Of a stretch of DNA of 32,000 bases, positions 6,001-9,000 are shown in pieces. Numbering within the stretch: position 1 is the first letter of the stretch; every line of letters begins with the position of its first letter. The DNA lies in the NCBI GenBank assembly GCA_965200035.1, contig OZ241334.1, positions 1,584,713 through 1,616,712 of the forward strand, in the 5' to 3' direction. Made by a program: the position numbers. Source of the DNA: Chitinophagaceae bacterium (GTDB lineage: Bacteria; Bacteroidota; Bacteroidia; Chitinophagales; Chitinophagaceae).

Positions 6001-9000
6001 ACCAGTTGGATAAAAATGCAAACAAGATAAAATTTCTATTAGCCCGGCGCTCACTACCGCCCCGGCTATGAATCACGTTGAAGAAGAAACAGACGATTGT
6101 TGCTTTTTGTATTTTCAGATTTAGAACTTATCTATTCATATATAAATATCACAATAAAATATCCGGATAAATGGTTTGCTGGGCTATTAAGTATTCAGCT
6201 ATATGGAAGCCTTTTCCTTGAAATTTCTCTTTTCGGAAATATTATGCTCTAACAGCATACCAAATTAAGTTTGGGAAAGAGTAAAATGCTGAAATAATGA
6301 TTGTACATTGTACCCGTTAATAATTACTTAGACCTTACTTAGACCTATTTTCAAACCCAAATCCTAACCCTTTCATGGGGGCTTCACGCAGCTCCAAAAG
6401 ATTAGCTTAATCTATAAACCTCTCCTAAGCTAATATCATGATCCGTTAAAAGAATCTCTTTACAAAATTATTTTTGGCTACAGGTTAGCCCTGTTTGTTC
6501 ACGCGTATAAAAAACCAGAGAATTTACTAATGCATAAATTATAGCCCAATGCCATCTAACAAAGACCCGCCATTCTAAAAACCTATCTCCATTCCTAACA
6601 AATTTTTCAATTAATACAACAGACAAAATGATACTGATACCCTTAAAAAAAATGATGATTAAGTACCATATAGGTACTTTCATGGCTTGTATGATTCTTT
6701 TTTACAGCTGTACCAAAGACAAAGCAGCTATAGATGCTTCAACTCAAAAGACCACTGCGAACAGGAATGCTGCAATCAGCGATGAAGATGTGTTCAGGGG
6801 AGTAATGTTCCTTGATGGACCAGTCGCTGACCACTTGGGTGACTATAGCAGTATGAATCTTGCTTCTTATATGACTCCTGCACAAAAGGACGCAGCGACT
6901 GATTTGGAGAACGAGATTATCGCAGCAATTGAAGACGAGAGCAGTAGCTACATGGCCGATTTTAGAAGTAAGATAACTTCCGGAGACTTTGACAAGGTAA
7001 AAGCTGCAATGATTGATGGAGGAAATATGATTAAGTCGAAACTGACAGGTGTTTCAAATGCGGATTATCAATCGCAGGCAAATAGCTTTATGGATACCTA
7101 CAAGATTACTTCCTCTTCAACGCTTACCGATATAAAAACTGCTGTACAGCAACAGGCAGCTATGCAAACCAATTGCGTTGGTGTTGAATTGATTGTTGTT
7201 GTTGTTGTCGTGATAGCACTTGTAGGAGTATGGGTTGGTAATAATATTTCCAATAATCCCGATCAAACAAGTACCTACCTGAATGAGGCTTATTTTTCAG
7301 CAATAACCGTTTCACTGGACGGTCTTTAATCAATAAATGATTGGAATCCGTGTTAACACGGATTCCAATCTAAATTTTTATGAAAAAATATAATATAGCC
7401 TCGGGCTTTGCCTTTGTAGCCGGGTGCCTGTTTGTTACAGTATCGGTGTTATATTTTATGACCATTTATTTGGGAAATAATCCGCTTAATGAAAACCTGA
7501 CGCTGAAACAAAAATGCGCTTCAATTTTTCCGCAGGGATGGTCCTTTTTTTCTAAAAGCGCTAAAGAACCCTTATTGTACATATTAAAGAACGAGGACAA
7601 CGATGTTCAATTGCTGGATATAAGAAATGCATCTTTTGCAAATTATATGGGCTTGAACAGGCACAATCGCATATTGAATGTCGAAATCAGCAACATACTC
7701 CGACAAATAAATAAAGACACAACCTTCACACTCTATACCTATAGAGGTTCGACGATAAATGAATTAAAAGATACAATTATACGCAGTATTGTACGATATG
7801 ATACACTGAGCGTCAGGAAAGCTTTAGCTCCAAGCGTTTCAGGAAAATATATTTTTGTTTTTGAATTTCCCCGTCCCTGGAGCCTGATTCATTTAAAAAG
7901 AGATTATAAGGGTACTTTTAAAGCATATGGACTTAACATTATACCAAAGTGAAAAATTTAATCTTACAGCTTGAGCACAAGCCTGTCTTTAACAGCAGAT
8001 TGGCGCTGGCCCGAACAATACTTGCCTTAAGTACACTGCTTCTACTATGCTTTAATGATATTCATGAAAGCCTCAGAACAGAATTATTGAGTGAGCCAGG
8101 TAAAATTACTATATCTCCATTACTTCAATGTTATAGCATATTTCACGTGTTTCCGCCAGTACTGGCTAAATCTATAAGCATATTAATTTTACTATTTTCT
8201 ATTTCCGGATTTCTTCCCCAAATATCCGCGCTGCTGCATGCATGGGTGGCGGTAAGTGTTTGTAATTCATTTCTGGTCATAGAAGGTGGTGATCAGGTTG
8301 CATCCAACCTATGCCTGTTAATTGCCCCGTTATGTATGCTAGACAATAGAATTAATCAATGGCAGAAAGTACAGCCGATAGTATCAAACACAAGAAAAGC
8401 GATAAATGTATTTGCAAATGTCTATTATTGTTTAATCGTTGTTCAGGTTGCAGTAATCTACCTGCACGCTGCGGTGGGTAAATTATATCAGGATGAATGG
8501 CTGAATGGGACGGGAATGTATTACTGGTTTACGAATAACGTCTTTGGAGCACCCATATATCTACAATGGATATATAGTAAAATTGCGCTTTCCGTTTTTG
8601 TCCCACTAATGTCATGGGGTGTGATTATATTCGAGCTTGGCCTCTTTGCCTGTATCCTCGCCACCAGTTCAAAGCTCAGAAGAGCATTCCTTATATCAGG
8701 AATTATATTCCATTTTGGCATTGCAATAACCCACGGACTGCCCATTTTCTTTTTTGCAATGACCGGAGCGTTAATTCTTTATTTAGATAGTGAAAATTGG
8801 ATGCTGGGTCAAATCTTAAAGGTCGTTTCCTTGATAAAACTTAAAAGAACAAGTGGCACAAAATCCTGAATCGCATTAATACGGATCTTTTAAATGTTGC
8901 TTATCTGGTCATTTATGTATAACCATCAAAAAGTCAGCTAGTTCCTTTCTGCGGCATTTTATACCAGGTTTTCTGAAATCAGCCAGATGCTCATTGCAGA

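Follow-up and report, generated by a model that had tools for sequence, protein, structure and literature searches.

A 32-kb window of DNA from a Chitinophagaceae bacterium (32,000 nucleotides, positions 1,584,713 to 1,616,712 of contig OZ241334.1, assembly GCA_965200035.1) contains three adjacent, co-directional genes related to sdpC, sdpA and sdpB of Bacillus subtilis. We conclude that these genes probably constitute a complete production cassette for a membrane-active antimicrobial peptide of the SDP type, in the arrangement typical of Bacteroidota. Reading frames and family scans cover the window only, and all coordinates below are positions in the window unless a related locus is named. 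A preliminary description, made from the sequence alone, had placed three open reading frames (ORFs) at 6628-7329, 7380-7952 and 7949-8869, all on the + strand. They are found exactly there, together with every motif that it had quoted: VFRGVMF, PQGWSFF (residues 51-57), IEGGDQ and QVAVIYLH...WLNGTGMYYW. The SdpC-, SdpA- and SdpB-type genes are abbreviated C, A and B in what follows, and the features of the cassette are these:

6628-7329, + strand: SdpC-family precursor, 233 aa (TIGR04032 match; precomputed PF26137)
6628-6723, + strand: predicted signal peptide with lipobox ILFYS-C28, then C-T-K-D-K (from the pattern and homologues)
6790-6810, + strand: VFRGVMF motif, residues 55-61, in the pro-domain of the precursor (subfamily alignment)
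7174-7239, + strand: predicted toxin core, C183-VGVELIVVVVVVIALVGVWVG204 (Kyte-Doolittle maximum, family-variable sequence)
7240-7326, + strand: linker and conserved C-terminal tail, ..P..TYLNEAYFSAITVSLDGL (subfamily conservation)
7339-7379, + strand: hairpin with a perfect 14-bp stem and a 4-nt loop, then TAAATTTTT (fold -23.3 kcal/mol)
7380-7952, + strand: SdpA-family protein, 190 aa, N-terminal membrane anchor and extracytoplasmic domain (TIGR04034, PF17418)
7949-7952, + strand: GTGA start/stop overlap of the sdpA-like and sdpB-like genes, GTG/TGA, 4 nt, at junction AAAGTGAAAA
7949-8869, + strand: SdpB-family polytopic membrane protein, 306 aa, GTG start, HTTM-like (TIGR04033)
8480-8482, + strand: codon of SdpB Lys178, which aligns with the catalytic Lys218 of human GGCX (vitamin K-dependent gamma-glutamyl carboxylase)

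Curated profile hidden Markov models (HMMs) uphold the assignment of all three genes to the Sdp families. The SdpB-like protein matches TIGR04033 above its cut-off (E 3.9e-53, 180.9 bits against 178.4, model positions 11-272 of 276), and the SdpA-like protein exceeds the cut-offs of both TIGR04034 (E 1.2e-17, 64.3 bits against 53.1, positions 5-147 of 157) and Pfam PF17418 (54.8 bits against 25). The profile scan that had been suggested as a check was thus positive for these two, while toxin_SdpC (TIGR04032) matched the precursor at E 1.1e-18 over positions 2-145 of 172, yet scored below its cut-off. All three Sdp models found a counterpart, and no competing assignment of the first gene emerged. 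The precomputed annotation of the precursor includes Pfam PF26137 (Toxin_SdpC), a match that a local Pfam scan did not report. Because the precursors of this subfamily fall below the SdpC cut-off, naming by NCBIfam labels the A and B genes and probably leaves the toxin gene unlabeled.

The precursor start on record for the source genome is 6655, which gives a protein of 224 aa (P0001). We regard 6628 as the better start because the first nine residues encoded from there are conserved, aligning with the N-termini of homologues (MILIPLKK against MVLTKLRN, MITIRLRK and MILLSIKR). The GTGA overlap of the other two genes, which the preliminary description had also reported, was verified in the sequence, and an NTGA overlap occurs at 21 of 77 A-B junctions in related loci. 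As read from this junction, the sdpA-like and sdpB-like genes appear to be translationally coupled.

The cassette recurs widely. In a survey of one genome per GTDB species, with an SdpB alignment as query (a single-sequence query returned nothing), SdpB relatives were found in 294 species representatives. The loci of the best 80 of these 294 relatives were analyzed with iterated HMMs on all ORFs, yielding 77 cassettes. These best 80 loci are mostly from Bacteroidota (Flavobacterium, Chryseobacterium, Chitinophaga, Pedobacter, Cyclobacteriaceae and Saprospiraceae), with a minority from Nocardiopsis, Myxococcota and Bdellovibrio, and SdpB homologues with 50-58% identity belong to Flavobacterium, Chryseobacterium and metagenomes, the closest relatives being 52-58% identical. 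The precursor gene adjoins SdpA and SdpB homologues in 67 of the 77 cassettes. The order is co-directional C-A-B in 65 and A-B-C in 2; in the other 10, several of which stand at contig ends, the A-B pair has no C beside it. The order in the window is therefore the common arrangement, and A-B-C of Bacillus is the outlier. The preliminary description was right that the order differs from that of Bacillus and that the lineage is non-sporulating, but with these counts of cassettes and species neither property is remarkable. Many SdpB relatives already bear the NCBI name 'sporulation-delaying protein SdpB family protein' or the Joint Genome Institute (JGI) name 'antimicrobial peptide system SdpB family protein'. 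The cassette adds a rather divergent member to a kind that is already known, curated and widespread in Bacteroidota, and by itself it changes little.

Some of the related loci hold more than one unit. Three consecutive precursor genes precede a single A-B pair in L059, and two do so in L011. Two cassettes stand side by side in L021, L027, L032 and L058, one of the pair being C-A-B and the other A-B-C in L021.

Across the family, the precursor consists of five parts: a lipoprotein signal, a pro-domain, a variable core, a short linker that often contains proline, and a conserved tail. When 1.84 billion cluster representatives were searched exhaustively with phmmer, 169 of them proved to be related to the precursor at E<=1e-3, and the nearest one other than the protein itself is 44% identical; word-indexed homologue searches returned two proteins each for the precursor and the SdpA-like protein. 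The secretion signal was judged from a hydrophobic N-terminus and a lipobox pattern. In the window protein, as in most Bacteroidota homologues, the hydrophobic N-terminus ends in a lipobox (ILFYS-C28), and about 57 of 74 precursors from related loci have a lipobox cysteine (45 by pattern and about 12 by eye), with the consensus [ST]-K-[DE]-[DE] at positions +2 to +5 after it. The signal for surface export of Bacteroidota lipoproteins is C-X-K-(D/E)2, and KD alone is inefficient (PMC5080379). The family consensus and the CTKDE of the closest Flavobacterium loci fit this signal; the window precursor, with CTKDK, matches it in part, the second acidic residue being missing. As judged from these motifs, surface display of the precursor is plausible for the family and uncertain for the window protein.

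Behind the signal, the pro-domain consensus tDEdVFxGVMFLxGPVA ... FR..ItSGDy is conserved family-wide. The hydrophobic core is Ala/Val-rich and differs in sequence from locus to locus, between flanks that are conserved. In the window protein, the extreme hydrophobic stretch that the preliminary description had noted after Cys183 is VGVELIVVVVVVIALVGVWVG, and the 19-residue Kyte-Doolittle mean reaches its maximum for the protein, 3.08, at residues 183-201. The cysteine that precedes the core is indeed present, but it is not conserved within its own subfamily, in whose alignment only the closest relative (P0125) shares it; a C-x5-C occurs in some Flavobacterium loci (L080, L033, L035 and L038). 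The tail motif of the subfamily reads Y/F..Y/F..S/T.I/V-T..L.G-I/L, with the variant ..E.LVNSIA.NL elsewhere in the family. Since SDP of B. subtilis ends 21 residues before the C-terminus of SdpC, the tail is probably, by analogy, a follower or recognition segment that is removed on maturation. In a delta-proteobacterial metagenome-assembled genome (MAG), a precursor homologue (L073, 3330-4298) carries many tandem copies of GNLPVADVR in place of the usual region before the tail.

The hairpin at 7339-7379 lies between the precursor gene and the sdpA-like gene. In at least 13 related loci a comparable hairpin, whose sequence is not conserved, comes right behind the stop codon of C, and in the hairpin loci the gap between C and A is at least 50 nt, except in L015 (18 nt). 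We consider the hairpin to be probably terminator- or attenuator-like, giving more precursor than processing-gene transcript. Sigma-70-type sites and the Bacteroidota TAnnTTTG motif were not above chance in the window; sites at 6266 and 6469 were noted.

Both processing genes encode proteins with the hallmarks of their families. In the SdpA-like protein, which has a single N-terminal membrane anchor, the family motif PqGWxFFT occurs as PQGWSFFS, and P51, G53, W54, F56, F57, G91, R94, E102, G155, P166 and W167 are conserved; the family alignment contains no catalytic-triad-like set among the conserved residues. The SdpB-like protein keeps all the family-invariant residues, and its AlphaFold model is of high confidence, with a predicted local distance difference test score (pLDDT) of 91.4 and a predicted template-modeling score (pTM) of 0.88. 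When the model was compared with the PDB by Foldseek, the only strong matches were chains of GGCX, the top 10 with probability 1.00 and a query TM-score of 0.53-0.60, and the model superposes on the GGCX transmembrane domain over ~300 columns. A profile of 26 SdpB sequences likewise finds GGCX among PDB sequences (E 0.006), and in the profile alignment Q166, Y171, K178, W184, G187 and H255 of SdpB are identical in human GGCX. K178, invariant in 84 SdpB-family sequences, is aligned to K218 of GGCX, which acts as the base in deprotonating vitamin K hydroquinone (bioRxiv 10.1101/2025.02.09.637231).

From the modeled fold and these residues we infer that SdpB is enzyme-like, not a passive exporter. 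The resemblance to GGCX comprises the HTTM fold, the Q/Y/K/W/G/H positions and a substrate in which a conserved 'pro' part adjoins the segment that becomes the product. SdpB differs in having no luminal propeptide-binding domain, and SdpA may replace this missing domain of the carboxylase. In an ungapped extension against what we take to be the human GGCX sequence, the Glu-pocket residues N159/H160 were not evidently conserved in SdpB. The cassette-bearing lineages (Bacteroidota, Actinomycetota, Myxococcota and Bdellovibrionota and, from the literature, Bacillota) are generally known as menaquinone users, and this use of menaquinone would fit a quinol-dependent SdpB. One of the cassette loci, L013, is labeled Gammaproteobacteria. 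In the literature that we searched, no link was drawn between SdpB and vitamin K or HTTM, and neither gamma-carboxylation nor quinol dependence was reported for Sdp systems. The same literature leaves processing by SdpA and SdpB unexplained, and the retained catalytic lysine of the carboxylase offers a concrete idea of how it may work.

The precedent for the function of the cassette comes from B. subtilis, in which SdpC has a signal and a hydrophobic segment, C141-S182, that becomes the 42-residue SDP (PMC6818787). YitM resembles SdpC over its N-terminal three-quarters only and has a different hydrophobic domain; SdpC and YitM are the only characterized members, and in both the toxin activity resides in the hydrophobic domain, the N-terminal part being removed (PMC6818787). 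Processing that depends on SdpA and SdpB and yields a secreted peptide able to collapse the proton motive force is known from B. subtilis only (PMC6818787). Our reading of the window is supported by the architecture of its precursor, which matches that of the published SdpC and YitM (PMC6818787).

The window shares with sdpABC homologous SdpA and SdpB, both above curated cut-offs, and probably, by analogy, the SdpA/SdpB-dependent conversion of an exported precursor to a membrane-active peptide. Against the sequence that we take to be B. subtilis SdpC, the precursor aligns over residues 33-140 only (P0001 numbering), with 28% identity and a pairwise E of 4e-9; the similarity is thus restricted to the pro-domain, in agreement with what has been published for SdpC. 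The cysteine pair C141-C147 with which SDP presumably begins has no counterpart in the window precursor, and the window core is without similarity to the sequence that we take to be SDP. The two systems differ also in gene order (C-A-B in the window, A-B-C in Bacillus), in the hairpin that separates precursor and processing genes in the window, in the type of signal (lipoprotein in the window, signal-peptidase I in SdpC) and in the SdpI/SdpR genes, which the window lacks. The window host is a two-membrane, non-sporulating bacterium, so that no link to Spo0A or to sporulation delay applies. The yitPOM operon, a paralogue of sdpABC that makes the YIT toxin, is similar in several of these respects: its resemblance to SdpC is limited to the N-terminal part, its core is different, its role is unrelated to sporulation, and a gene for a secreted hydrolytic enzyme adjoins it. 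That neighbor is the metalloprotease gene nprB, whereas the window has a serine alpha/beta-hydrolase; gene order, signal and envelope differ too. With the cassettes of Flavobacterium, Chryseobacterium, Chitinophaga, Pedobacter and Cyclobacteriaceae the window has in common the C-A-B order, a lipoprotein signal (followed in those cassettes by [ST]-K-[DE]-[DE]), the A/B overlap, the variable core and the conserved tail. It departs from them in lacking the SdpI, DUF1648, DUF5808 or bPH gene that about half of them have after SdpB, in having its hydrolase gene upstream, not downstream, in the divergence of its precursor (44% to the best non-self relative) and in lying on a low-GC island in a higher-GC host.

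By homology and on the Bacillus precedent, production of the peptide would proceed as follows. The 233-aa precursor would be exported by Sec and, as its lipobox suggests, acylated at Cys28. At the outer face of the inner membrane, its pro-domain would be recognized by the SdpA-like protein, anchored and probably non-catalytic, together with the SdpB-like protein. This pair would be needed to make a short peptide around residues ~183-204, with loss of pro-domain and tail, as in the conversion of SdpC to SDP. The released peptide, if it acts as SDP does, would insert in target membranes and dissipate the proton motive force. For self-protection of the producer, the window holds no recognizable gene.

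Outside the cassette, the features of the window on which the argument draws are these:

4633-6030, + strand: secreted alpha/beta-hydrolase, 465 aa, with signal peptide and GHSEGG nucleophile elbow
8959-9261, - strand: orf100, a 100-aa hydrophobic ORF, convergent on the sdpB-like gene, no family match
11175-18902, - strand: TcB/TcC fusion of the Tc locus
19108-31236, - strand: TcA-like protein, 4042 aa (VRP1, ABC_toxin_N, neuraminidase-like and TcB-binding domains, C-terminal Laminin_G_3)

Several gene families recur near related cassettes: SdpI (PF13630) in 15 loci, alpha/beta-hydrolase in 10, DUF1648 in 9, DUF5808-like in 6, bPH_5 in 5 and bPH_7 in 4. In about half of the related loci, the gene directly behind SdpB is of the SdpI, DUF1648, DUF5808 or bPH type, a pattern that toxin/immunity modules would be expected to show. 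The preliminary description had seen no SdpI/SdpR-type gene, and this was upheld within the window by a six-frame HMM search and by scans of small ORFs. HMMs of the SdpI, DUF1648, DUF5808-like and bPH genes (five families from related loci) all gave E > 0.05 on the six-frame translation, and Pfam and NCBIfam scans of the small neighboring ORFs found no helix-turn-helix (HTH) regulator or SdpR-like gene. Elsewhere, eight loci (L002, L003, L004, L008, L012, L038, L054 and L067), seven of them from Flavobacterium and one from Chitinophagaceae, have an XRE-type HTH gene on the other strand, upstream of the precursor gene; it is absent from the window. It is possible that this gene is a dedicated regulator of those cassettes.

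The hydrolase at 4633-6030 matches Pfam alpha/beta-hydrolase and S9/S33 families and is EstD-like, the latter far below the cut-off. In 10 of the 80 loci (a raw count) a homologue is encoded no more than 5 kb from the cassette, mostly in the same direction and immediately behind SdpB, and in L011 and L081 the homologue is 45% identical. In a Cytophagales MAG (L014, 1792-3765), the frame that encodes SdpB residues 1-292 stays open into that of an alpha/beta-hydrolase. That hydrolase keeps a signal-like segment of its own and is followed by a bPH_5 gene, and the two proteins are either truly fused or the products of genes that abut. We take the upstream hydrolase of the window to be, probably, an optional accessory that arrived together with the cassette, a grouping that is supported by their shared low GC content at third codon positions (GC3).

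The other near neighbor, orf100, has by eye ~2-3 apparent membrane segments. It has no Pfam or NCBIfam match and no relative in the 80 loci, and it is on record as a singleton predicted protein. A TAnnTTTG motif stands 21 nt upstream of it, the motif not being enriched in the window. This ORF could be a candidate immunity gene, either for the cassette or for the neighboring Rhs remnant described below.

The GC3 values set the cassette apart from its surroundings: they are 0.32-0.40 for the hydrolase, C, A, B and orf100 (0.40 for orf100), 0.57-0.61 for the flanking DUF1015 and YihY genes, and 0.53-0.58 for the Tc genes. The region 4.6-9.3 kb is thus a low-GC island, which probably entered the genome as a single block from a Bacteroidota donor of low GC. 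At its edges, no meaningful flanking repeats, tRNA, Rfam family or integrase were found in the window. Two stretches to its left are poor in recognizable genes: 3138-4632 (~1.5 kb) has no ORF >80 aa, and 1228-2093 (~0.9 kb) has overlapping ORFs of up to 141 aa with no meaningful family match; neither has an Rfam match.

On the other side of the island is the Tc locus that the preliminary description had placed beside the cassette. This locus is real, with both the TcB/TcC fusion and TcA identified. Between it and the cassette, a 112-aa Rhs fragment (9422-9760, - strand) is 88% identical to TcB-TcC residues 2026-2137, has a GC3 of 0.74, and ends in a stop at a point where the parent TcB-TcC protein goes on; it has the appearance of an orphaned Rhs/TcC core piece that tip-exchange recombination left behind. 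Over the last ~475 residues of the TcB-TcC fusion, the GC content falls from ~0.55 to ~0.43-0.44, and the fusion is followed at 9898-11209 (- strand) by the low-GC orf192 (10631-11209, overlapping the TcC stop by 35 nt) and then by orf162, a membrane protein. Neither orf192 nor orf162 has a family match. Judged by sequence, the TcC tail with orf192 and orf162 looks like a polymorphic toxin tip accompanied by immunity or orphan genes. The Rhs fragment, orf162 and orf192, which make up the zone 9422-11209, have no relatives in the 80 loci, where the Tc proteins were not searched for.

Several points weigh against the reading of the three genes as a cassette for an SDP-type peptide. The precursor stays below the curated TIGR04032 cut-off (67.7 bits against 99.2), and so does every one of the 11 members of its subfamily, all of which match the model. 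Its core, of ~22 residues with one non-conserved Cys, differs from the 42 residues of SDP, to which we ascribe two Cys. The structure prediction of the SdpA-like protein, made from a shallow alignment, is of low confidence (pLDDT 38.7). The 32 kb contain no recognizable immunity or regulator gene. In a two-membrane producer the peptide would have to cross the outer membrane, and the export motif is partial (CTKDK). Finally, no Bacteroidota member has been characterized experimentally in the literature that we searched.

In a rival reading, the genes form a sorting or anchoring system of the PEP-CTERM/exosortase or GlyGly-CTERM/rhombosortase type. The hydrophobic segment and the tail would then be a sorting signal recognized by SdpB and SdpA, and the function would lie in the conserved N-terminal domain, exposed on the cell as the product. 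Such a system would account for an N-terminal domain and an extreme tail that are conserved around a hydrophobic segment free to vary like an anchor, for a predicted lipoprotein in a family whose consensus fits the surface-export signal, and for the failure to find an immunity gene in the window. We nevertheless hold it to be quite improbable. In SdpC and YitM it is the hydrophobic domain that is the toxin, the N-terminal part being discarded (PMC6818787); in about half of the related loci SdpB is followed by genes for SdpI-type or other small membrane proteins, as fits immunity rather than sorting; and the SdpB fold is that of an oxygenase-like enzyme, unlike known sortases. A different explanation grants the cassette its ancestry and sees in it a silent or decaying passenger of the acquired low-GC island, whole in sequence yet unexpressed or inactive in this host, for example after loss of its immunity gene. 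The contrast in GC3 with the flanks (0.32-0.40 against 0.57-0.61), the lack of an immunity or regulator gene among the genes found, and promoter-like motifs that do not exceed chance all agree with this. Decay, however, has left no mark on the three ORFs, which are uninterrupted and cover their models to near full length, nor on the invariant SdpB residues, the translational coupling or the hairpin, all of which are intact, and we think a passenger of this kind improbable.

The proximity of the Tc/Rhs locus, ~2.3 kb away with low-GC small ORFs and an Rhs fragment between, could also suggest that the cassette is functionally tied to it in a combined 'toxin island'. The intervening ORFs, however, lack relatives in the 80 loci (the Tc proteins not having been searched for there), the two loci lie convergently on opposite strands, and the GC3 of the Tc genes is 0.53-0.58. 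The 88% copy of TcB-TcC marks the intervening zone as debris of Rhs recombination. Nothing was found to support a functional tie; we have rejected it as highly improbable, and the proximity looks coincidental.

The preferred reading, a production cassette for an SDP-type peptide, can be extended into a wider picture that we put forward as a tentative proposal, doubtful as a whole. In Bacteroidota, the precursors would be lipoproteins sent to the outer membrane or the cell surface, SdpB would be a carboxylase-type enzyme that uses menaquinol and oxygen, and SdpA would stand in for the propeptide-binding domain. The hydrolase would be a recurrent fourth component, serving release, trimming or self-protection, and immunity in the window would be of a new kind, provided by orf100, the hydrolase or the outer membrane. 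No two-membrane member has been studied in the literature that we searched. The variable cores of these precursors, as predicted from their sequences, represent a pool of candidate membrane-active peptides.

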